A stretch of 64,000 bases of DNA from Octopus vulgaris. Its lineage: Eukaryota. Positions 2,132-60,590 of this stretch are shown piece by piece; position 1 is the first letter of the stretch; the number at the start of each line of letters is the position of its first letter. Both the position numbers and the translations under genes were made by a program. The DNA lies in contig OX597821.1 in assembly GCA_951406725.2 (NCBI GenBank), positions 23,870,001-23,934,000 of the forward strand, read 5' to 3'. The notes beneath the pieces are model-generated. The model had not been told where the DNA came from. It did no database searches and worked only from the letters and a program-made list of their open reading frames with translations.

Positions 2132-3850
2132 GTAAGATCTTACATTAAACTGATTGCAATGAAAATTGTCACCTTTAGCATCGCTCTCATCATTATCATC
2201 ATCATTTTCGCCATCATTTATGAGTCTTGAAAAAAACTTACTGTATGGCATATCATCATCATCATCATCATCATTATAATCATCATCATCATTTGAACAT
2301 CCACTTTTCCATCCATGCATGCAAGCGTAGGTTGGTGGAATTTGTTGGGGAAGATTTTTTCTAAGGCCAGATTCCCTACCTGTCCCCATCTTTTACCTGT
2401 TCCCAAGCAAGATAATATTTCCCTGTGGCCAGACGTGGTTTTTAAGGAAGATTGGAAAAAAAAACAAATGACACTAGTTTACATTCCTCATGCAATGTCA
2501 CTCCTCCTCACACATAGCATAGATACATACATATTTCTTCACCACCACCACCACCACCACCACCACCATCCTTTAATGTCCCTCTTCCATGGTGGCATGT
2601 GTTGGACTGTTCGACAGGAAATAACAGGACCAAGGACTGCATTGTGCTCCAATGTCTGATTTTCACAGGTGGGTGTGCTTTACAGCTGGACACCCATCCT
2701 AATGCCAACAACTTTATAGCATGCATTGTTGCAGTTTGTATTTTTTTCCATGGTACAAGCACTGTTGGGGTTACAGCCCATAAGACTGAGTGGGACTACA
2801 GTAGAGAGGAAGGCAGCTAAATGCTCGATGATAAGAGGAGTCAGATCAGGACAGATTTCTTACAGAACGCCAACACTCTTCATTAACTTGACTACACATT
2901 GTAGAAGACCAAGTATGAGTAACTGGAATGGGGCTGGAAAGAGAGATACAATAGTGATGATGAGTTATCAGGGTGGATTCTGAAAGTACAAGGTGAACAG
3001 GAGTGGGAACAGAGGAGCTGGGAAAGTGGGTAGAGATTGCAGGAGAGCATGGGGTTAGCAATGGACAGTTAGAGATGAGGAAGCGGTGAGGGAGAAAATA
3101 TAATGAATAACAAATGTTGAGTGGGTAGTTGAAGGTAAATACATATTTCCATCATTGTGTCAAAAGCTCAAATTCCATGCTTATACCATTTCACTAGTTT
3201 AGAAGCAAAAAACTCCCTGCACCAGTTTTCAAGCTCATCCATATTGTTGACCCTCTATTCATGCAGGAAATGTTTGCAAAGGGCCTTAAAGTTAACCTAG
3301 CTAAGACCAAAGTTGTTGTTAGTAAGAAAAAAGATAAAACTCTCAATATGTAGAAAAGGAGCTAAAAAAATTCCATTTGCTGCACCTATTGTAAACTATG
3401 GACACATAAGAGGTGCAGCGGAATCACAGGTAGATTAACAGATAAAGTTATCTTTGTATGTGGTAGATGTGCAGGAACAAAAGCACTAAGAGTACACAGG
3501 ATTTAGAGTCTCTCAAATGCTGTACTCTTTCACTACAACTTTCTCTCACTCTTTCTTCTGTTGACCTGCTTGCTTAGCCAGTGGGGTGGCATCACTTGAT
3601 GGCTAAAACAATGCAAAGCGCATTGTGACCAGCGATGTGTAGCAGCATCTGATAGCCTGGTTGGTCACGTGATCATGTGATATATATATATACTAGCATA
3701 CGGGTCATAGTGCTAGTTTGGTATAAATTTGTTAAATTAAAAATTTGGGGTAATAAAACATACAATGACATATTAAAAAAAACGAATTAAAATTCCAGAG
3801 AAAAATACATAGTAGATAAATATACAAATTTACAAAAATACATAAAAGTT

Positions 3851-3932
3851 CATCTATGGGCCATTTCGGAGACGCACCAATTAATATGAAACATATCATA
3901 TATTTAAAATTGGTACTCCCCTCGTCAGGATG
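3851..3932 (-). ncRNA. Minimal type I hammerhead ribozyme, AUA cleavage site
   Basis: Minus strand: CAUC-CUGACGA-GGGGAGUACCAAUU...AAUUGGUGCGUCUCC-GAAA-UGGCCC-AUA|GAUG. Stem I is CAUC/GAUG, stem II is a long hairpin, and the catalytic core is complete. Confidence 0.8.
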
Positions 3933-4661
3933 TTTTTTACACACAACACATAGTACATGGAAACAAATGCACAATTACATACCTGCTACATGTGAAAGAC
4001 CAGACATTACATGCTCCCAAAAATTCTCATAGATACTGAATGCTACTTTATAAGCATATAATTCAATCTAGCAGCTATAGTAAATGGTATGCGCACAGCT
4101 CCATCTGGACTAATTCACTTCTACACTCGATTAAATTTTTCATCTTTTAATTTTTCCCATTCATGCAAAGCCACATATTCAAGTTCAAATCCTTGATACA
4201 TTTTATACTAATTGCTATTTTTTCTTTTAATTGTTATATTACAATTTAATTACCATTTTAATAAAATAAAATATATTTAATTACTACCTACTATATTTAC
4301 TATATTTAATTCAATTGTTATTATTACCTCTAACTTTTATTGCAATTTTTATTTTTAAATTTCTTATGGAACGTTGAGTGGATCTTATGCATACAATATA
4401 TTTTTATATGATGTTTATATATTTATATATTACTATATATTTCTAAATGTCAGACTTTATGTCTGTTCTGTAGATATAATTGAATATATGTATGTGTATG
4501 ATCTTTCTGTGGATTTTGTAGTGCTCTTGTAGTTGCTGCTCGCATTGCCTCCCCTCGGATTAAAAAGTGTATACAGCTCATTTGAGCACTACTATTCCAG
4601 TCTGTTATATATTTTGATCGTTGTTGTCAATAACGATCTCAAGATATAACTTTATATTTTG

Positions 4662-4696
<35 letters not shown>

Positions 4697-4985
4697 CATA
4701 TACATACAATAGAGAGATGTTTTTGTTTCACTTTTAACACGTAATACTGAAATAGTGGAGAAGATATGAGATTGCTGTGGGCTCGCTCTAGGCAAGAAGT
4801 TGAACATTTTTTGTTTTTTCCCATGACACTACATGAACCCTAAGTAAGGCATGTGTAAAATTTGAATGAAATTGTTTGTGTAGTTCTCAAGTTTTAGGGA
4901 AACACACAGACAGACAGACAGATAGACACACATTCTCAGTTCTATATATATAGAGGTATATACATATATATATACATATATATGC

Positions 4986-5032
<47 letters not shown>

Positions 5033-5123
5033 CATATACATATATATATATACATATACATATATATATACATATACATATATATATACATATACATATA
5101 TATATACATATACATATATATAC

Positions 5124-5166
<43 letters not shown>

Positions 5167-5204
5167 CATATATACATACATACACATATATATTCATCTT
5201 ACAG

Positions 5205-5283
5205 TTAACCTGGTTATCCATGGAGCTGGGTTCCCACAGCTTGGTCCTTGTCACATTTCTTGAGCGTTTACAGAATACAAAAG
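5205..5283 (+). CDS. Internal exon of the same methyltransferase-domain gene
   Basis: cttacag|TTA...AAAG|gtaag, 79 bp. Encodes [26 protein letters not shown](A); phase 0 in, phase 1 out, matching the neighbours. Confidence 0.75.
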
Positions 5284-6557: not shown

Positions 6558-6824
6558 GTAAGAATTGTTATATACTAGCAGATAACCCGGCCTTGCTCGG
6601 GATTAAAATGACATAGTGCTTTTTATTATTTTACTTGTTTCAGTCATTTGACTGTGACCATGCTGGAGCACCACCTTTGGTCTAGCAAATCAACCCCAAG
6701 ATTTATTCTTTGTAAGCCTAGAACTTATTCAATCGGTCTCTTTTGCCGAACCGCTAAGTTATGGACATGTAAGCACACCAGCATCAGTTGTCAAGCGATG
6801 TTGGGGGGGACAAACGCAGACACA

Positions 6825-8192: not shown

Positions 8193-10140
8193 ATGTGTAC
8201 ATAGATATATAACTTAGAAGAAATGAGGTACTCAGAAAATCGGACGGTTTATATTTACAGATGTTTATTCATATATTACATTTTTTATACATCATATAAC
8301 TTAGATCATGTATTAGCGCTTTCTCCCATTCTATTGGGGTTTTCAAATCAAACTAAGTTCCTGTGTGAAAAGTTTTGACCATTTTATAGTGGTATTGAGT
8401 TTGTAGTGGTGGGGAGGAATGATGGTGGAAGCACTCCGTCGGTTCCGACGACGAGGGTTCCGGTTGATCCGATCAACGGAACAGTCTGCTCGTGAAATTA
8501 ACATGTAAGTGGCTGAGCACTCCACAGACACGTGTACCCTTAACGTAGTTCTCGGGGATATTCAGTGTGACACAGATAGTGACAAGGCCGGCCCTTTGAA
8601 ATACAGGTACAACAGAAACAGGAAGTAAGAGTGAGAGAAATTTGTGGTGAAAGAGTACAGCAGGGATCACCACCATCCCCTGCCGGAGCCTTGTGGAGCT
8701 TTAGGTGTTTTCGCTCAATAAACACTCACAACGCGCGGTCTGGGGAATCGAAACCGCAATCCTACAACCGCGAGTCCACTGCCCTAACCACTGGGCCATT
8801 GCGAGGAGAAAGTGAGAGAGAGAGAGCATGTGTGTGTGTGTGTGTGTGTGTGTGTTTGTATTTGGAATGAGTGCTAAAGAAGAAGAGGGAAAGGGAGAGG
8901 GAAGAAGAAGCAGAAAAGAATTTTTTTGCTCTGCTGGACAGCATGCTTACTCCAAGGGGGGGTCTAAGATCTTGGGGGAAAAGAATTTCAGTTTTGACCA
9001 TTTCATAGTGTTATTGAGTGTGTGGTGGCAGGGAGGTAGACCATAAATTATATTTCTTTTTCTCATTGTGTGTGTGTGTTTAATAAGGGATGGTCAAATG
9101 GTTTTTTTGGGGTTTAGAGAAGAAGAATTCTTTTTATGATTTTTTTGTGGAGGTGTGTGTGTGTGTGGGGGGGTGTCTGTGAGTTTGGAGAAGGGAAGAA
9201 AGGAAAAGAGGAAAAAAAAGGAGGAAGGAGAAATAATTGTGTTGATATTTATACCACTATATATACATACATATACATAAAACATTAGAAAAAAACCACC
9301 TTTTATCAACTCAAAATGAATAATTAAATTACACCATCTAGAAAATTACATATCATAGAAAAGTTAAAATCAAAATGACAATTAAAAAGTAAAGATTAAG
9401 TAAATTACAAAAATAACACAATGCATACAATAGGTAAAAAATATATATATATATATACACACACATATACTAAATGCTCCACTATATTAAATTGTAAATT
9501 GAAAGATTTGTCCTTCAATGTATGATGAGTAAAATTTCATAAAGTCCATATTTGAAAAAGAGACTCTCTTGTGTTGAAATTACAAATGACAGAATACAAA
9601 CTGACAACTACTGAGTCTCTTGTCTGATCTTCAATTGATTTAGTCTAATATCTCACTGATTAACTAAATATTAAGTTTTATCATACAGGAGCAACTGGTT
9701 CCACAAATTAAAGTGAAATGGTTTCATTCAAATATTAGGATAGCCTTTGTTCAATGTTGCATTTTCAAAAACCAAAGCATATGTGTAGAACTGTGTGTGT
9801 GTGTGTGTGTGTTTTTAATACAGTTTACTTAGCAAATTTGGTCCTTCATCTGGTACAGCTTATTATAGAGATATTTTCAGCCATTAATATTTGATCAACA
9901 AAAATTTATGAAACGCTTCTATGTACTTCCTACTGAGGAAATGGAACACATAAGCGCAAAAATAGAGGGCATTAAATGCTTGATTTTAAAACCAAAATAA
10001 TTGAATTTTGATTGAACTTCATCCAAGTTTAGCTTAATTCTTGCGTGCATAGAACGCACAAGCCGGGCAATACTGCTAGTATATATATCTATTATTTATA
10101 TTATTATATTATCGAACGCCACACATCCATTTCCAAGTAA

Positions 10141-23932: not shown

Positions 23933-24286
23933 ATGTCTACGTTAAGGCATGTTACTTCTCGCATCAACGGCAGTATGATGCCGAAATTTCAAGGACGAAA
24001 AGCCTGTTTACTAGGTATTGCTCAAGGAGTTGACAGCAGCGGCTTATCTTTTAAACTGAAAACCTGCGACGATGTAAACGTATCAGTGTATTTATCTGAA
24101 CCATTGAACGAATACGTTGGTGGACTGACGGAGGTGTTTGGTGAAGTGAGTTCGAATACCAGCATGAACTGCCAAGACTATGTCCTCTTCACTAAGGAAC
24201 AGACAGATTCTTTTGATATGGAAATGTATAATACTGCAGTGGAGATGATTAGCAAATATTCTGATCATTATAAAGTTGGTGTGTGA
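23933..24286 (+). CDS. RPA3: Replication protein A 14 kDa subunit (OB-fold), intronless, 117 aa
   Basis: Protein reads MSTLRHVTSRINGSMMPKFQGRKACLLG...LNEYVGGLTEVFGEV...FDMEMYNTAVEMI, carrying the RPA14 hallmarks RIN, EVxG and FDMxxYN. The ATG at 23933 is preferred over the upstream ORF extension. Confidence 0.92.
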   Translation: MSTLRHVTSRINGSMMPKFQGRKACLLGIAQGVDSSGLSFKLKTCDDVNVSVYLSEPLNEYVGGLTEVFGEVSSNTSMNCQDYVLFTKEQTDSFDMEMYNTAVEMISKYSDHYKVGV

Positions 24287-37728: not shown

Positions 37729-38489
37729 CTGTAATAGAAATAGAACAAAATGAGAGCGTTTCAAATTCAAAATGGTAAACCGATCCTTTAGAGACAACTA
37801 TGCTTTTCAGTGAGATACGAAAAGGGATAAGAGTTTTAGTATTTAAAATTCTATAAAAGTAACTATATTGGAGAGAGAAAAAATATGTAAGAGTTAGTGG
37901 TTTAACATGAGTGGAAGAAAGTGGCCAAGAGCAGAGAAAGAGGCTGAGTGTTGAGAAAGAGGTGGATATCTTTATATATATAAAACTGAGAATGTGTGTC
38001 TGTCTGTCTGTGTATTTCCCTAAAACTTGAGAACTACACAACCAATTTCATTCAAATTTTACACATGCCTTACTTAGGGTCAATGTAGTTTCATGGGCAA
38101 AAAAAATGTTCAACTTCTTGCCTAGAGCGAGCCCATAGCAATATCATATCTTCTCCACTATTTCAGAATTACATGTTAAAAGTGAAACAAAAACATTTCT
38201 CTATTTTATGTCAGATGCTTTCACTTTAACAGTAAAAATAATAATAACAATTGAATTATACGTAGTAAGTAATAATTAAAATCAAACTAAAGTAACATAA
38301 CAAAAGTAAAAATAGCAATTGGTATAAAATTGCATCAATGATTTGAACTTGAATAAGTGGTTTCACATGAATGGGAATAAATTAAAAATAAAATTAGTGT
38401 GCAGAAATGGAATAGTCCAGATGGATAATAAAAAATTAAATTAAAGAAAAGACTGTTGTCTATAAAGTATATAATGTAGAGAAAAAAGA

Positions 38490-40156
38490 AGATTGAACGG
38501 CTGTGTTTTTTTGCGCTCTGTGAAATTCGGTTAAAAAAGAACAAAAAGTGAATGGTTGTTGTTGTGAAATTTTGAACGTCGTTAATGTGGTTTCGCGTTT
38601 CACTGGTTCTGCGAGTTGCACTTATTCGGTTCGGGAGGCCGTTTTTCGGTCTGAGGCGACTATGAGCCGCCTCTACCAAACGGATGAGATGGAAGGGAGA
38701 AATTTCTCTGAAAATTCGTCGACATCTGAGGAGGAGTTGGCGGTGAAAAAAATGGAAAGCACCTATGCAGGTATAACGAAGAAGTCAACAGAAAAAGAGA
38801 TAGACCTGGCTAAGTTGACGGACTTCCAGGAGTTCATGAAGGAGGAGGAGAACGGAGAGGTTGAGCTGTTGCCTCTAGCAGGGCGCGGAGACTGGTTCCA
38901 TCGTAGAACCATTAAATATAAAGTATTTATGAATGGAGGTAGAAAAATGGAAGTGATTAACATGGAAGCAATTGAAGAGGCTCTCAAACAGACAGGAGAA
39001 GAAATTGTGTACATGACAAAAGGATTAGAATATGGAACCATAATGGTACAATTTAAAAGTGAGAAAGCAGCCAGGAATGTAGCAGCCAAGGTGGTGAGTA
39101 CAGAAAAGATTTACTTGTTCCCCTTGTATTTGAATAGAAGGACCACCAGAATTAGGGTGGTGGGAATACCTCCACACCTAGAGGGCGAATTAATAACGGC
39201 TGCGGTTATCAAAGGAAATGAAGATGAAGCGGACATCCTCCACGCCATTATGAAATATGAAGGCGTGAGAGGTGCCACACTAGTAATGAACATACAGACG
39301 GAGGCGGAAGTTATAGAAAAGCTTACGGACAGTATAAAAACTGGGAATATTATTATGAGAGTGTGGGTGGAGGGTAGGGCGCCCAGGTGCTACAAGTGTG
39401 GCCAGAGGGGTCACATAAGAGCCTACTGCCCTCCCCCACCAAAGGAAAAAGAAAAGGAAATCGTTGCGGAAGCCCCAAAAGAGGAAGAAACTAAAGAGAA
39501 ACAAACAGAAAAGGAAACGACAGAAGAAGAGGAGATGCAACAAGAGTGGGAAGAAGGCAGAAAAAAGAGAAAAAGAAAAACTGTGCGAAGCCCCAACCCA
39601 CCCCAACACCACCCACACCCTCTGAATCCCACCCTTCCCCTGCAGACAGTGAACCCACCCGCTCCCCTCCAACAAGAAAACAAAAAAAAATTAACACAGA
39701 CAGACAAGAGACTGAAAGCGAACCCAGGCCGAACATTTGTATTATGACAGAACAGGAAGAGGTTAAAAGGGTAATGGAAGGGTATACATGGTGCGATTCA
39801 GGTGTGACCAGGTGTGCAGTGATTGAAAAGGAGAGAATAGATGAGTTTATGAGAAGGTGCGAAAGGGAGAATTGGGAGGTGGAAGAGATGAGTCTGAGTG
39901 ATGAATCCGTGAAAAATATGGAGAATCGTTTTGAAGTGAGAATGGAGAATATCGGTTTTATTATTGGAAATTGGAGTGACGGCGAAAACCAAAGGACAGG
40001 TAAGTGATGCTAACGGATGGGGCCTTTAGCATCGCTTTCATATTATCATTTTTTCATGTAACAATTCATCCTTCATAAATTTAATTATAATGTTCTATGT
40101 CCCCATGTCTTGTAATGTCCCCCTCTTCGTTGGCCTCTTGTGGGTAATAAAGAATC
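38490..40156 (+). mobile_element. ORF1/gag-only non-LTR retroelement inserted in a Helitron-like repeat
   Basis: The empty site is visible in the sister Helitron copy near 51115-51135; short AAGA duplication. No RT. 3' tail GCCTCTTGTGGGTAATAAAGAA. Confidence 0.8.
38662..39747 (+). CDS. LINE ORF1p/gag-like protein with RRM-like region and CCHC zinc knuckle
   Basis: Open frame MSRLYQ...; RRM-like MVQFKSEKAA; knuckle CYKCGQRGHIRAYC; basic RKKRKRK tract. Probably continues via a frameshift into ORF 39546-40007. Confidence 0.75.
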   Translation: MSRLYQTDEMEGRNFSENSSTSEEELAVKKMESTYAGITKKSTEKEIDLAKLTDFQEFMKEEENGEVELLPLAGRGDWFHRRTIKYKVFMNGGRKMEVINMEAIEEALKQTGEEIVYMTKGLEYGTIMVQFKSEKAARNVAAKVVSTEKIYLFPLYLNRRTTRIRVVGIPPHLEGELITAAVIKGNEDEADILHAIMKYEGVRGATLVMNIQTEAEVIEKLTDSIKTGNIIMRVWVEGRAPRCYKCGQRGHIRAYCPPPPKEKEKEIVAEAPKEEETKEKQTEKETTEEEEMQQEWEEGRKKRKRKTVRSPNPPQHHPHPLNPTLPLQTVNPPAPLQQENKKKLTQTDKRLKANPGRTFVL

Positions 40157-40686
40157 AAGATTTGAACACCTGGAGGAAAGCACCTTCGAAAAGTGTCTTG
40201 GTGCGACTATGAAAGGTATCTAATCAGAGGCGGTAAATTCGCCACAATAGAAGCAAGGTTCGAGTCAACGGAGCGTGCAAGGGAGTACTTGACTCGAACT
40301 TGCAAAGTGGAAATATTTTATTGTTACCTTTATATCTGGGACATAGGACGTCCCGGAAAAAAATTTTTAATCCCCCCCCCCAGAAGTAGAGGTAGGCTGG
40401 ATTGTAGCCACAATTCTATACAAGAGGGAGGACAAGATACAATTGATCGAAATTACAAGAGACGGGCTAACAATTCCAGTCTGTTATATATTTTGAGTAT
40501 TGTTATCACTAGCGATATCAAGATATAACTTTGTATTTTGTATTTTATGTGTAGATGTATATATATATAGATGTACATGTAATATGTACACATATATATA
40601 CACATATATACATGCACTAGCACTATGACCTGGCAACGACGGGTCTTTAATGCTAGTATATATATATATATATATATATACACATA

Positions 40687-43138: not shown

Positions 43139-44103
43139 TATATATATATATATATGCGCGTGGCTTTGGGGCTAGGGTGTTGAACTCATGATCGTAAGGT
43201 TGTGGTTTCGATTCCTGGACTGGGCGATGCGTTGTGTTCTTGAGCAAAACACTTCATTTCACGTTGTTCCAGTCCACTCAGCTGGCAAAAATGAGTGATC
43301 CTGCGATGGACCAGTGTCCCGTCCAGGTGGGGAATTTCTACGCCGCTGAAACCGGGAAACCGGCCCTTACGAGCCTAGCATGGCTCCAGAAGGAATATTT
43401 ATTTTAGTCCAACCCATGCTAGTGCGGGAAACGGACGCTAAACGATGATGATATATATATATTAGGGAGTATAACTCCAAACTTACAGGGAAAAATTCAA
43501 TTTAGTATTAAATCAAATTTCACAATATAAATATATAAAATATAAATTAGAGATAAAACCACTATTATTCAACTCAGTGACAGACATAAATCAAAACATA
43601 AATAACAAATAATATATATTTATAACTAGATCTCAAAAAGTATAAAAATGAATGATCAATATTGTTTGAGTTGCACAATAGTGGTTTTATCTCTAATTTA
43701 TATTATATATATATATATATATATATACAAATTGAGATAGGGGTTGTGAGTGCAACCCACCCTGGGATACCATATATCCAATATGCTGCTAGTGAAGTAC
43801 CCAACAAAGTTAATACATAAATGTTAAGAATTGCGATGCAATTAATTCATTTATTGTATTATATGGGCAAAGGTAAAATGTTTTACCACAAATTAATAAT
43901 ACAAAATAAGAAAATGGAGAAATACACCTTAATCAATAATCAACTACCAGATAATACCCAATCACAATTTATTAACCCAATACATATGAATATCAAGGTC
44001 AAACATGATAGTATAGAACAAAACAATGCACATCAATGATACAATATGATACAATAAGTACAATATGTATAAGTGAATATAAATAAATATAAATATAAAC
44101 TAC

Positions 44104-44230
44104 ATCTTACAGCTGTTTCAGCCATGCAGATATGGGTATCTCATTATGCTCATATTAGCCAGGTGTGATAAGTTAATATGTGGTTATAAATGAGACACTT
44201 ACAAAAATATCCCAAGGCCTCTTCAGAGAT
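44104..44230 (-). ncRNA. Minimal type I hammerhead ribozyme with ~100-nt stem II, GUA cleavage site
   Basis: Minus strand: AUCU-CUGAAGA-GGCC...GGCU-GAAAC-AGCU-GUA|AGAU. Stem III is the palindrome CAGCUG. Stem II pairs internally (GAUAU/AUAUC, GUGUCUCAUU/AAUGAGAUAC, CAUAUUA/UAAUAUG). Confidence 0.82.
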
Positions 44231-44499
44231 TATAAAATACAAGCTAAACTAAATATGAATATCAGAGGAGGTACACCCATACAAGAGTGGGTACATACCC
44301 ATAATATATAATATACACATACATATGAGTGCATATACCCATACTCCTATATATATATACACACATATACATAATAATATACAACAATATACATACATAT
44401 GTTCTATATTCAAGGTTACTGCTGTTGTTAGTCAACAACAACTATCGGCGATGTATTTTTCATTTGTCACTGTTATTTATGACCCGTTCGTGCATTTGT

Positions 44500-50053: not shown

Positions 50054-50607
50054 TATCATTTTAAACAGTTTGATTTGGTTCCATGCAATTTAAAGTTTCA
50101 CAGGACTTAAAGTTAACAGGCTTTGGTAATCTAAAGCCTGAAAGAGACAGGTTTCTGTTAGGACCCTGCAAAACTTTAAGTCAGATGGACCTGAATGAAA
50201 CTATTTTGAATTATATTTGTAACTTCTACTGACTATATTGAGTGCCCTTTTCTTTTGTCCGCCCACTCACTTCTGGGCGTTGCCAGTGTCATGTAAATGT
50301 GACTTGTGAAACCGTAGTTGTGGCTGCTGCTATTGCTGGTGTTATGTAAATGGCACCTGTGCCGGTGGTACATAAAAAGCATCATTACACTCTTGGAGTT
50401 GCTGGTGTTAGGAAAGGTATCCAACCATAGAAACTATGCCAAAACAGACTGGGACTTGGTGCAGCTCTCCATCTTACCAGTTCCAGTCAAACTGTCTAAC
50501 CCATTCCAGTATGGAAAGTGGATTTTATATGATGATGATGATGATGATATATACATATATACATACACACACACACACATCGATGGATTGATAAATATGT
50601 ATATATC

Positions 50608-51631
50608 TCTATATATATAAAACTGAGAATGTGTGTCTGTCTGTCTGTATATTTTCCTAAAACTTGAGAACTACACAACCAATTTCATTCAAATTTTACA
50701 CATGCCTTACTTAGGGTCCATGTAGTTTCATGGGCAAAAAAAATGTTCAACTTTTTGCCTAGAGCGAGCCCATAGCAATATCATATCTTCTCCACTATTT
50801 CAGTATTACATGTTAAAAGTGAAACAAAAACATTTCTCTATTTTATGTCAGATGCTTTCACTTTAACAGTAAAAATAATAATAACAATTGAATTATACGT
50901 AGTAAGTAATAATTAAAATCAAACTAAAGTAACATAACAAAAGTAAAAATAGCAATTGGCATAAAATTGCATCAATGATTTGAACTTGAATAAGTGGTTT
51001 CACATGAATGGGAATAAATTAAAAATAAAATTAGCATGCAGAAATGGAATAGTCCAGATGGATAATAAAAAATTAAATTAAAGAAAAGACTGTTGTCTAT
51101 AAAGTATACAATGTAGAGAAAAAAGATTTGAACACCTGGAGGAAAGCACCTTCGAAAAGTGTCTTGGTGCGACTATGAAAGATATCTAACCAGAGATTGT
51201 AAATTCGCCACAATAGAAGCAAGGTTCGAGTCAATGGAGCATGCAAGGGAGTACTCGACTCGAACTTGCAAAGTGGAAATATTTTACTTTTACCTTTATA
51301 TCTGGGACGTAGGACGTCCCGGAAAAAATTTTTTAATGTCACCCCCCACCCCCAGAAGTAGAGGTAGGCTGGATTGTAGCCACACTTCTATACAAGAGGG
51401 AGGACAAGATACAATTGATCGAAATTACAAGAGACGAGCTAACAATTCCAGTCTGTTATATATTTTGAGTATTGTTATCACTAGCGATATCAAGATATAA
51501 CTTTGTATTTTGTATTTTATGTGTAGATGTATATATATATATATAGATGTACATGTAATATGTACACATATATATACACATATATACATGCACTAGCACT
51601 ATGACCTGGCAACGATGGGTCATAATGCTAG
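50608..51631 (+). mobile_element. Non-autonomous Helitron-like repeat (uninterrupted copy; partial inverted copy at 4700-4950)
   Basis: TC 5' end and CTAG 3' end; high identity to 37968-38489 plus 40157-40656. Confidence 0.75.
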
Positions 51632-51769: not shown

Positions 51770-53440
51770 CTGACACAAAAAAAATGAATAAATAAATAAA
51801 TAAATAAAAACAAGCCATAATGATATGCTGGTGGTAAGCCGTAAACTCCTAATGAAGTTACAGGAGTCCAAAACACGATGCCCAAAATGCACAAGAGACA
51901 CCATGTCTTGAGATATGGCATTTTGGGATAAATCTTTCGCTTTTTACTAAAGATTTCAGTGGGGAGGAACATTTTAATGAGTCTATAGACTTATTTTTGA
52001 AAGCCTCATCTTGGGTATTTTAAACATGCCCAGCCCATCATTCCCAAGGTTTGAACACAACTGATGTCTCACATAGGGAAAGAGTGTGAGAGGAAGTGAG
52101 AAAGAGGAGAAATGACCCCAGTACTTTATTTATCAAAACTGAAAGGTGAAGTTGACCCCAGTACAGTACTGGTACTTTATTTATCAAAACTGAAAGGCAA
52201 AATTGATGCCAGTGGAATCTAAACTCAAGGTACAGAAAGATGAAATGACTATTGCAATGAATTCAATCTTGAGATAAAATAACTGCTACATCATTGCTTT
52301 AACCTTTATGTTATCATATTTCTATTGAAAGTTAATTTTGAAAATAATAAAGAATTTAGTAAAATGGCTTTGTCCTTACTAAGCTAGCATTTGGAACATA
52401 GATTAACATGGAATTGTAATGGAAGATATTAATTTAGAAGTCCGTATCATAGAACCAGGAGCAGTCTCATACAGGTTGGTATCAAGGGAGCTAATGATAT
52501 GTTAGTATAGTGCTATGATGGTATAATTCTCTAAATTAGCAAGACTATGGTTCTAATTAGTTCAGGCTCAACTAAAATGTCATTTAATAAGTGGTATTTA
52601 TTTAATCCACACTCACATAGCAAAAATGGATCCTAGCAAGATTTGAGCTTGAAATTATGAGAGTTCTGGTGCTCTATTGCTTATTCCACACAACTACAGT
52701 ACACATTATTAATAATTGTACCTGTGAAGACCCACCCACCACAACAGAATCGAGATTCTAAAACCAAGGTGTTGTGTAAAAACCATTAGTGCAGGTACTG
52801 GTGTCACGTAAAAAGCACCTGTGGTGGTGTCATGTGAAAAGCACCCAGTACACTTTGTGGAGTGGTTAACATTAGGAAGGGCATCTAGCTATAGAAACCA
52901 AGTCAAAACAAAGGAACCTTGTGCAGCCCCTGGCCTTGCCACTTCCTGTCAAGCCATTAAAACCCATGCTAGTATGGAAAACAGACATTAAATGGTGATG
53001 ATGATGTCACTGACAAAGCTAGCAACTTCTAGAGGACACACAGCAATATTATTTAAATTATTTTTTTCTTGTCCTGTACTTTTCTAGACTTCATTATTGC
53101 TTGTTCTGTACCTTCCCAGGTTCGATATTTAAGAAAATTCTAAGATTCTGCAACCACCATTTTTCATTCTGGTACACTCTTTCTCTCTCAGTTCATTTAT
53201 GCTTTGTCATTCATTAGCACTAACATTCCATATCACAGATACAATATGCTACCTAGCGCAGGAATTGAACCCATGACATGGTCATGAACCTAACCCCCTA
53301 ACCACTAGGCCACATGGCTTCACATACACCCCCCCCACACACACACACAAATATACATTTTGATTTTTTTTTTGATTTGATTTTTTTTTTTTTGGATTTT
53401 TTAGTTTCAGCTCATGAGCTGTGGCCATGCTGGGGCACCG

Positions 53441-57671: not shown

Positions 57672-58875
57672 TAATAATAATAATAATAACAATAATAACA
57701 ACAACAACAATAGTAAGCAAAGATATAGACAAATGGTTGAAAGAGATTGAAATAGAATGCCCAGTAGAACTCCTACAAAAACTTTGTCTCTTAGGGACAG
57801 CAAGGATTATCAGTAGGGCTCTAAGCACTTGAAAGACTGCTTAAAACTTGTGGATACCTAAAGTTACAGGTAGTAACCCACTACCCACATAAATTCTACG
57901 AGGAATAAGACTGAACCGGAACCAAAGCAAAATAATAATTCATAATAATAATAATAATCCTTTCTATTATAGGCAAAGTCCTGAAATTTTGGGGAAGTAA
58001 GCAGTCAATTGCAGTGATGTCAGTACTTAACTGGAACTTACTTCACAGCTGAAAATCCACAGGGGAGGATGCAAAGCCTCATTCATACATTTTGAATTTG
58101 TTAGTACTGGATGTCGAGGGTGGTTCGTCTGAGGTTATTCAAATTAGACGGGTATGTTAGATTTTTAGTGCTCTCAAATTTAAATTTAACGAAATCTTGG
58201 GCTGATGACAGGAATGTTAGAATAGGTATGTATTTCTAGCATCTCTATATCTAACTAACCCAGAGACGCGTTCTCAAGTAATCGATTTTCGAGTGATCTT
58301 TCGTTATTTTTCCCTCTATGCCTACGTGAATTGTTTTTGAGTATACATTGTCTGGGAGACTCTTCTTATAGTAGGGGAAATAGCAAAATTCTTTGGCTGC
58401 TATTTCTAAAAGTTCAGTGTGTGGTAAAGTAAATTTTTTTGCTGAACCCTTATCATATAAAGTATATATATATATATATATTCTTTTATTTGTTTCAGTC
58501 ATTTGACTGTGACCTTGCTGGAGCACCGCCTTTAGTTGAACAAGTCAACTCCAGGGCTTACTCTTTGTAAGCCTAAAACTTATTCTATCAGTCTCTTTTG
58601 CCAGACCGCTAAGTTACGAGGACATAAATACATCAACATCGGTTGTCAAGCAATGGTGGGGAACAAACACAGACACACAAATTTATACACACACGCACAT
58701 ATACATACAAACATGTACATGGATACATACATACATATATATTAGACGATATACCACAATCCCCTATTTTGTCGGGTATGTTCTGAGTCTGCGCAGTGTT
58801 TTGAATAGTTTAGAAAGAGCGTTTCAATAGACGCACATGGGTCTATTAATATGGTCTTCCCATAATTAACAGGAA

Positions 58876-58948
58876 TCTTACTGAAGAGCCAGCCTGAGTA
58901 AATAAATATTATTTTTATTACTGAATTTGGCGAAACTGCAGTATAAGA
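58876..58948 (+). ncRNA. Minimal type I hammerhead ribozyme, GUA cleavage site
   Basis: UCUUA-CUGAAGA-GCCA...UGGC-GAAAC-UGCA-GUA|UAAGA. Stem I is a perfect 5-bp helix and stem III is the palindrome CUGCAG. Confidence 0.85.
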
Positions 58949-59112
58949 AAAGCTAAGTTTGTAAAAGTTTTTAATTTTCATCTCACTAAATTTATCCAGC
59001 TTTTGTGTATCTAGTGCACTCTTTGCCTTGAATGTAATTATATATGAATAATATATGGCGTGTACTGGTACACCGGCGATTATAATTAATTTTATTGTAT
59101 CGCATTTAACTT

Positions 59113-59161
<49 letters not shown>

Positions 59162-59607: not shown

Positions 59608-60003
59608 TCTTTATATATAAAAGTGAGGTTGTGTGATGTCTGTCTCCTACGATTTAGATTCCTAACTACTCCCACATTTTGCGGTGCAGTTTAACCAAAA
59701 CCGGGTATCTTATAGTCATGATTCATATCGAGCCCTTCTGGGTATTAGCGCACGTCTACGATGAGTTTACGATTTAAAAAAAAATTTACCATCAATTTTT
59801 CCCATTTTTAATTCATTTTTGGCATATATAAGGGAAGTAACTCTCTAAAAATTTATTATTAAATCTCAGAACGTAAAAAGCTACAGTCACCCCCCCCCTT
59901 TGTGGTTAGTCATATTGAGATGGCTATTATACTTTACATCTCTAAAAATGCTTATATAGTTATTTCCCTTACAAACCCGAGCAACGCCGGGCGATACTGC
60001 TAG
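59608..60003 (+). mobile_element. Short non-autonomous Helitron
   Basis: A|TC start; 3' hairpin CCCGAGCAACGCCGGG followed by CTAG|T. Confidence 0.75.
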
Positions 60004-60590
60004 TTGTATATAAATGTCATCCTGGCTAGGTGCAGGTGTGGCTGTGTGGTAAAATGTTTGCTCCCCAATCACATGGTTCAATCCCACTTTGGGCAAGTGT
60101 CTTCTGTTATAGCCCCAGCTTGACAAAAGCTTTGTGAGTTGGTAGATTTGATATATGGAAACTGAAAGAATCCCCCATCATCTGTGTGTTGTGCGTGCAC
60201 ACACATGCACATGTGTTTTTGTCTCCCTGCCTTGACCTTGCTTATATGACAGTGTCACTGTCATATAAGCAGGAATTGTTTACTCCTAATCTTCTGTGGA
60301 AACATCTCTGCTTATGGAGAAATATTACCTTATTTGGAAAGAGGTGAGGGTTGGTCACAAAAAGGATCATAGAAAAGCCACAGAAAATTTGCCTCAACAA
60401 AATTCTGCCTGGCTCAAAAACAGGAAAAGTAGATGTAAAAACACTGATAATGATGATGATGGCATATTAATTATATACATTTTATACATATAAAGAGAAA
60501 GAGAGAGGGGGAGAAAGTAATAAACATATAGTTGTAAGAAAAAATTACAGAACATCAGTAAATCATAATGGAAAAAGAAGAAATAAATAC

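Follow-up and report, generated by a model that had tools for sequence, protein, structure and literature searches.

We analyzed a 64,000-nucleotide stretch of the Octopus vulgaris genome (contig OX597821.1, positions 23,870,001 to 23,934,000; hereafter the window, with positions counted from its first letter) that contains a hammerhead ribozyme motif on its minus strand. The motif lies in an intron of an ovoA-like gene, inside a non-autonomous Helitron whose cargo comes from a Penelope-like retroelement (Table 1), and its helix III is a hot spot of insertions and deletions (indels) in the Helitron family. The initial annotation had placed the motif antisense in an intron of a methyltransferase gene. 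This location stood, with the host on the plus strand, the motif on the minus strand, and upstream exons that match OvoA: two match TIGR04344 (E 5e-19 and 6e-19) and one matches TIGR04345 weakly (E 0.014). The exon beside the intron (1988-2131) had no family match of its own, Atlas and PDB searches with this 48-amino-acid exon were uninformative, and we placed it in the methyltransferase domain by position and strand only. As a defining trait of the motif, the intron setting did not stand, since a Helitron carries the motif as part of its Penelope cargo, and we concluded that the intronic position is incidental. The ovoA pre-mRNA would carry only the antisense strand of the motif and would not be cut. 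A weak GIY-YIG-like fragment (E 0.029) lies in an upstream ovoA intron (L062:6517-6834, plus strand).

Table 1. Host intron, Helitron, Penelope pieces and hammerhead parts, in window positions. pLTR stands for pseudo-long terminal repeat and ORF for open reading frame.
Feature	Position	Strand	Remarks
Host intron (GT..AG), ovoA-like gene	2132..5204	+	Between exons 1988-2131 and 5205-5283
Non-autonomous Helitron copy	3693..4956	-	About 1.26 kb; inserted between A and T
Helitron 5' segment	4703..4956	-	TC start decayed to CC here; about 90% shared with ribozyme-less sister subfamily
(TA)n stretch	4665..4702		Likely landing site of Penelope piece
Inverted Penelope pLTR piece	4396..4664	+	Part lying after the ribozyme in free Penelope copies
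Forward Penelope piece	3717..4395	-	86% identity to L117, a free copy that has the endonuclease ORF; also holds the hammerhead and a U-rich tail
Last ORF codons	4395-4330	-	Within forward piece
TATA-like motif	4054-4043	-	Within forward piece
GT donor-like motif	3985-3972	-	Within forward piece
Minimal type I hammerhead motif	3851..3932	-	4-bp helix I; helix II long and helix III short; RNA cut predicted at 3855/3854
Helix I 5' strand CAUC	3932-3929	-	
CUGACGA	3928-3922	-	
Stem II	3921-3868	-	
GAAA	3867-3864	-	
UGGCCC-A-U-A	3863-3855	-	
Helix I 3' strand GAUG	3854-3851	-	
Helix III odd palindrome	3856..3864	-	Center 3860; free of indels in window copy; family breaks map between 3861 and 3857
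Helitron 3' hairpin and CTAG	3693..3717	-	Window copy lacks about 15 nt of hairpin

Hammerheads cleave after a triplet that obeys the NUH rule. We found the CUGANGA and GAAA boxes, an NUH site and three helices in the window motif, together with a long helix II, a 4-bp helix I and the G10.1-C11.1 pair. Stem II can begin directly after A9, so the extra unpaired base before G10.1, a usual but not strict trait, may not be required. A check of the coordinates located every named part, and the predicted cut, where the initial annotation had them, and its three stem II segments are all contained in the minimum-energy fold (-25.5 kcal/mol, z -2.1). A descriptor scan of the window gave exactly three type I motifs (3932 minus, 44230 minus and 58876 plus), and at the strict setting none of 200 block-wise dinucleotide shuffles yielded any motif. 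As had been claimed, this motif is unrelated in sequence to the other two hammerheads; the BLASTN matches listed were low-complexity only. An Rfam scan of the window gave no hammerhead match at this site, even at E 10. The full hammerhead fold of the window copy lies 2.5 kcal/mol above the minimum, with a helix I pair probability of about 0.25; low helix I pairing is expected because the motif needs a partner. We concluded that the hammerhead motif at 3932-3851 is real.

The AUA cleavage triplet and the perfect palindrome to be checked in stem III both needed correction at the family level. Among fully aligned triplets, GUA accounts for 33 of 46 and AUA for 8 of 46. In the window copy both helix III CpGs have been converted by transitions with the palindrome symmetry kept, and AUA here is CpG decay of the family GUA. 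Hammerheads tolerate an AUA triplet; our literature search found no paper on its activity. In the family, helix III forms an odd palindrome of 9 nt whose central C is unpaired. Its computed self-duplex energy is -10.2 kcal/mol with a central C-C mismatch, against -7.5 for the window copy and -11.1 for the perfect 8-mer helix III of the other two window hammerheads, so the family palindrome would allow a dimer. In PMC4209133, single minimal motifs did not cleave and dimers cleaved weakly. By analogy, we expect little activity from the window motif as a monomer.

Helitrons start with TC, end with a hairpin followed by CTRR, and insert between A and T without a duplication. We searched a 2.8-Gb genome for copies and found that the 29 closest relatives of the window element, at 93 to 94% identity, have common boundaries near 3700 and 4955. 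Of 30 loci, 23 had a 3' end that could be parsed, in each case a hairpin and then CTAG (22) or TTAG (1), with T as the next base; the 5' end could be parsed at 18 loci, and A|TC was present at 16 of them. Over the copies collected, there were 66 distinct 3' flanks. The exact 21-mer that spans the junction between cargo and hairpin has 85 genomic matches, which gives at least 85 chimeric sites and supplies the related copies that the initial annotation had asked for. We took all 85 and merged two with identical context. Of the resulting 84 copies, 47 have a 5' end within 1.5 kb, 71 have a full 3' end and 41 have both. An estimate of more than 1000 chimeric copies, from 1653 candidates, was rejected on the 85 exact junction matches and the presence of the 21-mer in 21 of 30 top matches; the data suggest roughly 100 to 200. 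A sister subfamily has the same Helitron ends and lacks the ribozyme at all 20 loci. One contig filed under a second organism label spans the Helitron junction, its shorter side having 31 letters, and two other labels have only 18 and 24; a metagenome pattern scan gave 0 matches. A contig over 3710-4174 (one difference) came from a run only guessed to be RNA, with strand and ends invisible, and was not used as evidence of expression.

The cargo led to a donor. An exact core pattern had 43 matches, and 17 of the 30 fetched had no Helitron end motif. Three of these 17 extend upstream into a frame that ends in a GIY-YIG domain (PF01541, E 6e-4, 20.6 bits, below the cut-off of 22.6), and one has an ORF start in inverted orientation. 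Conversely, 19 of the 20 best endonuclease matches lead into the ribozyme region. The frame at locus L085 has a C-terminal GIY-YIG domain without CCHH and with a CxCX5C linker, CxxC and CxH; RWR and DKT stand at the N terminus of the reverse transcriptase (RT) at L090, a separate locus linked through the shared pLTR. A 624-amino-acid frame had no Pfam match. These motifs fit the Hydra clade of Penelope-like elements, which also has hammerheads and (TA)n targets, and an inverted 5' piece beside a forward piece is the usual Penelope arrangement (PMC8557442). From these motifs we identify the donor as a Hydra-type Penelope-like retroelement and the hammerhead as its pLTR ribozyme; a Neptune donor was rejected in favor of Hydra on the motif set. 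The TATA-like motif of the forward piece may act as a promoter and the GT motif as a splice donor.

Precursor-like copies occur at two of 18 loci (L205 and L118), where the Helitron 5' end is present along with a longer Penelope piece that runs on past 3717; they suggest a longer precursor and its subsequent shortening onto the hairpin. We rejected a flush twin-priming junction, given that about 60 nt are absent and that longer precursors were found. In the proposed order of events, an inverted Penelope insertion, truncated at its 5' end, would first have entered a Helitron at a (TA)n run. A deletion would then have joined the Penelope piece to the Helitron 3' hairpin, and the Helitron machinery would have copied the chimera, once into the ovoA intron. 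In Penelope RNA, weak ribozyme cleavage after GUA would be expected, chiefly from a dimer formed through helix III, with 8 pairs and a C-C mismatch at their middle.

The sister subfamily also occurs in the window, at 50602-51630 and 37966-40660 (both plus strand). Within it lies an older stretch with about 70% similarity to the Penelope pLTR and, behind that, a TATA-like motif; in 5 of 20 loci, insertions resembling long interspersed nuclear elements (LINEs) lie about 25 to 30 nt behind this motif. With the pLTR-like stretch and the TATA-like motif upstream of the insertions, the LINE landing pad may be a captured Penelope promoter.

We compared the ribozyme in its two settings. Across 19 Penelope copies, which are related and whose flanks are imperfectly aligned, non-CpG mismatches were found at 3 of 203 core positions (1.5%) versus 485 of 5032 flank positions (9.6%). 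Only 18 of 77 Helitron copies have core and stems intact, and in these 77 a permutation test of core against flank columns gave p 0.14 (p 0.97 without 56 high-variation flank columns). This pattern reads as a ribozyme that is functional in Penelope and decaying in the Helitron. Because the sister subfamily spreads without it (20/20), few copies are intact and the core is not better conserved, the ribozyme is likely a functionless passenger in the Helitron. That it instead does work for the Helitron, or regulates ovoA, is hardly credible: the majority sequence of the chimera does have an intact motif with a TATA-like motif upstream, but the sister subfamily dispenses with the ribozyme, most copies are broken, and the window copy is antisense to ovoA and shows ordinary CpG decay.

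We next describe the hot spot. With strict anchors, 44 of 80 site-covering Helitron copies, with 29 alleles, had an indel within 3 nt of the helix III center; we call these indels scars. Elsewhere, the indel frequency had a median of 0.05 per 7-nt window and a maximum of 0.19, at a TA microrepeat. The sample consisted of all exact junction matches, since the best BLAST matches to an intact copy gave 21 of 30 intact and masked the scars. Among copies first obtained by the junction search, 42 of 54 were scarred; the remaining copies came from similarity to the intact motif. Deletion coverage peaked at the central C (46 of 83) and had dropped to about 6 by 12 nt away. Six alleles were recurrent, with carriers that had no common derived state and were spread over the tree. 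Mean divergence outside the site was only about 2.7%. A dip in contig depth at the site in three other runs was not used as evidence.

The scars resemble the end-joining products of a site-specific DNA break. Microhomology of at least 2 nt was found at 8 of 13 distinct simple deletions (3.0 expected, p 0.0008), and inserts templated from the flanks were counted by eye in about 9 copies, one of them reversed. Microhomology and templated inserts mark polymerase-theta scars (PMC7165422). Of 37 parsed events, 35 are compatible with a break at -1 to +3 relative to the center, against 27 for the RNA cut at +5/+6, which puts the probable break 3 to 6 nt upstream of the RNA cut. Both Helitron ends were kept in 20 of 40 scarred and 17 of 33 unscarred copies, and this equal retention points to a DNA-level event. 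It is very improbable that the deletions arose at the RNA stage, by an RT that jumps across self-cleaved RNA or by selection for a dead ribozyme. The hot spot does adjoin the catalytic site, and one free Penelope copy (L203, G000:C4 near 103.03 Mb; a single case) folds back at the first base of the predicted 3' cleavage product. However, several alleles retain the RNA cut site and are deleted upstream of it only, in keeping with the counts of parsed events, and scarred copies have Helitron ends and so moved as DNA. The CUGANGA box, where a hit would be equally lethal to activity, had indels in only 2 of 69.

We examined how specific the scars are to this sequence. Free Penelope copies were scarred in 7 of 31 motifs, read by eye at 40 loci picked by endonuclease (9 loci lacked an anchor, and five of the copies, all from one contig, are probably duplicates), and in 4 of 8 copies picked by downstream sequence and without a Helitron 5' end. 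With gap-tolerant patterns, the other two window hammerhead families were scarred in 0 of 26 (58876 family) and 1 of 24 (44230 family). A short interspersed nuclear element (SINE) with the same CGGCCCG 7-mer had deletions in 2 of 50 copies and length changes of any kind in 4 of 50. Fisher tests against 44/80 gave p 7e-8 (0/26), 4e-6 (1/24), 3e-10 (SINE) and 0.003 (endonuclease-picked Penelope set). Since both kinds of control were nearly unscarred, neither the hammerhead shape nor the 7-mer is enough, and a sequence longer than the 7-mer appears to matter. Local near-identical clusters, probably segmental duplicates, occur at L241-L245 (G000:C7, 100.0-100.2 Mb) and at G000:C30 near 20-21 Mb, and several copies in them have helix III palindrome substitutions without a deletion.

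These controls bear on whether a host process breaks the DNA, by double nicking at facing methyl-CpGs during base repair, as a meiotic break site or through a replication-stalling hairpin, which we consider unlikely. CpG decay in the element is high (125 of 679 flank cells), which makes its methylation likely, and the site has three CpGs in 13 nt as well as short repeats. Yet the peak is one base wide and symmetric, the SINE is almost free of deletions, and the long stem II is little affected. The CpG-rich 3' hairpin had mostly length changes of 0 to 1 nt among 155 with both arms, by a pattern that is blind to larger deletions, which do occur (as in the window copy).

The scars in free Penelope copies raise the matter of the donor's own enzyme. 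The GIY-YIG endonuclease of Penelope might cut the pLTR at helix III, so that the RNA end made by the ribozyme, complementary over 3 to 6 nt to the cut DNA end, primes reverse transcription into a copy already present, with the scars as failed events. The distance of the break from the RNA cut fits this scheme, every subfamily has the site, and a purified Poseidon protein was found to cleave both DNA strands, its own pLTR included (PMC11167929). Nevertheless, tested Penelope endonucleases favor AT-rich DNA (PMC11167929), Hydra elements target (TA)n for insertion (PMC8557442), scars are lacking in the other two hammerhead families, free copies terminate at (TA)n far downstream of the ribozyme, and no insertion was seen at the helix III site. 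On balance, we hold this scheme to be quite improbable.

We consider it reasonably probable that the motif is a Hydra-type Penelope hammerhead carried as a likely functionless passenger in a non-autonomous Helitron, and that the helix III hot spot most likely reflects a sequence-specific nuclease that repeatedly made double-strand cuts, which were then mended by error-prone end joining. The nuclease, most likely from another mobile element, would match the site by chance. It would cut at the palindrome center with a stagger of 1 to 3 nt, in the germline, copy by copy after insertion, and repair would likely be by end joining of the polymerase-theta type. Because the effect is confined to one sequence, is symmetric about the palindrome and comes without insertions, the site is most likely a chance target of another element's nuclease. 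A bolder claim, which we regard as rather doubtful, is that an animal germline contains, or once contained, a nuclease of restriction-like or guided type by which a ribozyme-coding transposon was cut at one fixed base in most copies; in its boldest form, this would be the Penelope endonuclease, or a host enzyme that destroys ribozymes as DNA.

Several observations weigh against the combination of a passenger ribozyme and a cutting nuclease. The genome searches made did not identify the nuclease, and no inserted element was seen at the site in 80 junction copies or at 30 of 33 loci selected because their sequence changes behind the left half-site; in the same sets there were no occupied sites or duplication footprints of a cut-and-paste transposon. 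The PF07282 (TnpB) profile gave 0 matches among 7 candidates scored, although this short bacterial profile can miss divergent eukaryotic forms. The event parse left 13 of 84 copies unparsed and 2 off-site indels out, and of the 16 "insertions" that it called, 6 came from failed parsing. Divergence does not differ between scarred copies (0.029) and unscarred ones (0.026; p 0.31), so the timing of the scars is unconstrained. Unscarred copies had no obvious excess of substitutions in the site (by eye), contrary to saturating cleavage. The site is rich in CpG and short direct repeats and has a possible 3-bp hairpin, and slippage may add to the scar count. One control family is younger (96 to 99% identity among the best matches of the 58876 family). 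On the side of the elements, no intact Penelope ORF and no RepHel partner were recovered, although no search was aimed at RepHel. As for the ribozyme, a cell-level test of the Helitron copies put the core below the flanks (29/660 versus 1271/18106, p 0.004), a signal that we attribute to misaligned flanks, and stem II covariation across 18 sequences from the subfamilies was weak (2 of 19 pairs).

By itself, the ribozyme is nothing out of the ordinary in a Penelope element; what is unusual is its carrier and the well-supported break hot spot. With the minimal type I hammerheads of metazoan Penelope elements (Cervera and De la Pena 2014, PMC4209133), the octopus family has in common the core, long helix II, 4-bp helix I, G10.1-C11.1, a short palindromic helix III, the pLTR position, many single copies from truncated elements and predicted weak dimeric cleavage. 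Unlike those motifs, it has an odd helix III with a central C and may need no extra base between A9 and G10.1, most of the copies collected sit in a Helitron, and DNA scars at helix III go unmentioned in the accessible text of that paper. With the Hydra clade (Craig et al. 2021, PMC8557442), the donor shares a C-terminal GIY-YIG without CCHH, CxCX5C, CxxC, CxH, DKT, RW[K/R], (TA)n targets, a hammerhead and an inverted 5'-truncated piece beside the pLTR; unlike that clade it has RWR rather than RWK, and its placement comes from motifs.

The carrier resembles Helitrons in its TC start, its 3' hairpin with CTAG and its A/T insertion. Helitrons capture foreign DNA (Arkhipova and Yushenova 2019 review, PMC6431247), and foreign cargo is common to our element and to other non-autonomous Helitrons with captured sequence. 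Unlike those, as far as that review describes them, the cargo here is the ribozyme-bearing end of a retroelement, gained by insertion and not evidently by 3' read-through. Animal non-LTR (long terminal repeat) retrozymes likewise have a Penelope-origin type I hammerhead in a non-coding repeat (bioRxiv 10.64898/2026.07.22.740005), but our family, unlike them, has no tandem ribozyme units and a single motif per dispersed element spread as DNA. The scars are like those of polymerase theta at nuclease cuts in that deletions lie mostly within about 15 nt of one point, with microhomology and flank-templated inserts (PMC7165422); unlike those, they are natural, inherited and recurring at one site over dozens of repeat copies. 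A literature search, with most subscription journals outside it, found no Helitron-borne hammerhead. It also found no case of inherited nuclease scars that recur at one site across repeat copies and no capture of a Penelope ribozyme by a Helitron, although family tables in PMC4209133, PMC8557442 and the bioRxiv supplements could list the family.

The chimera is a case of a DNA transposon that spreads a retroelement ribozyme, which is a route for lone, functionless hammerheads into introns. Dozens of independent copies with breaks at one base would amount to a natural nuclease editing experiment, and a defined site of about 19 bp with its cut position gives a handle for finding the germline nuclease. 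If the Penelope protein is what cuts, this bears on the purpose of Penelope hammerheads.

The other hammerheads of the window belong to different families. The motif at 58877-58947 (plus strand), with a perfect 8-nt helix III, lies in a young retrozyme-like family (58742-59123) that forms 404-bp head-to-tail units elsewhere in the genome, and is the retrozyme-like one among the three. The motif at 44230-44104 (minus strand) lies in a separate family (about 43700-44420) in which helix II is very long and copies occur whose arms are inverted. An Rfam match to U5 small nuclear RNA (41.1 bits, gathering 40) at 51903-52018 (plus strand) stands about 270 nt behind a sister Helitron 3' end, and an open frame at 24017-24280 (plus strand) matches replication factor A protein 3 (PF08661, E 9e-10). 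Helitron-type 3' ends of a different family are found at 6575-6590, 10063-10080 and 59987-60005.
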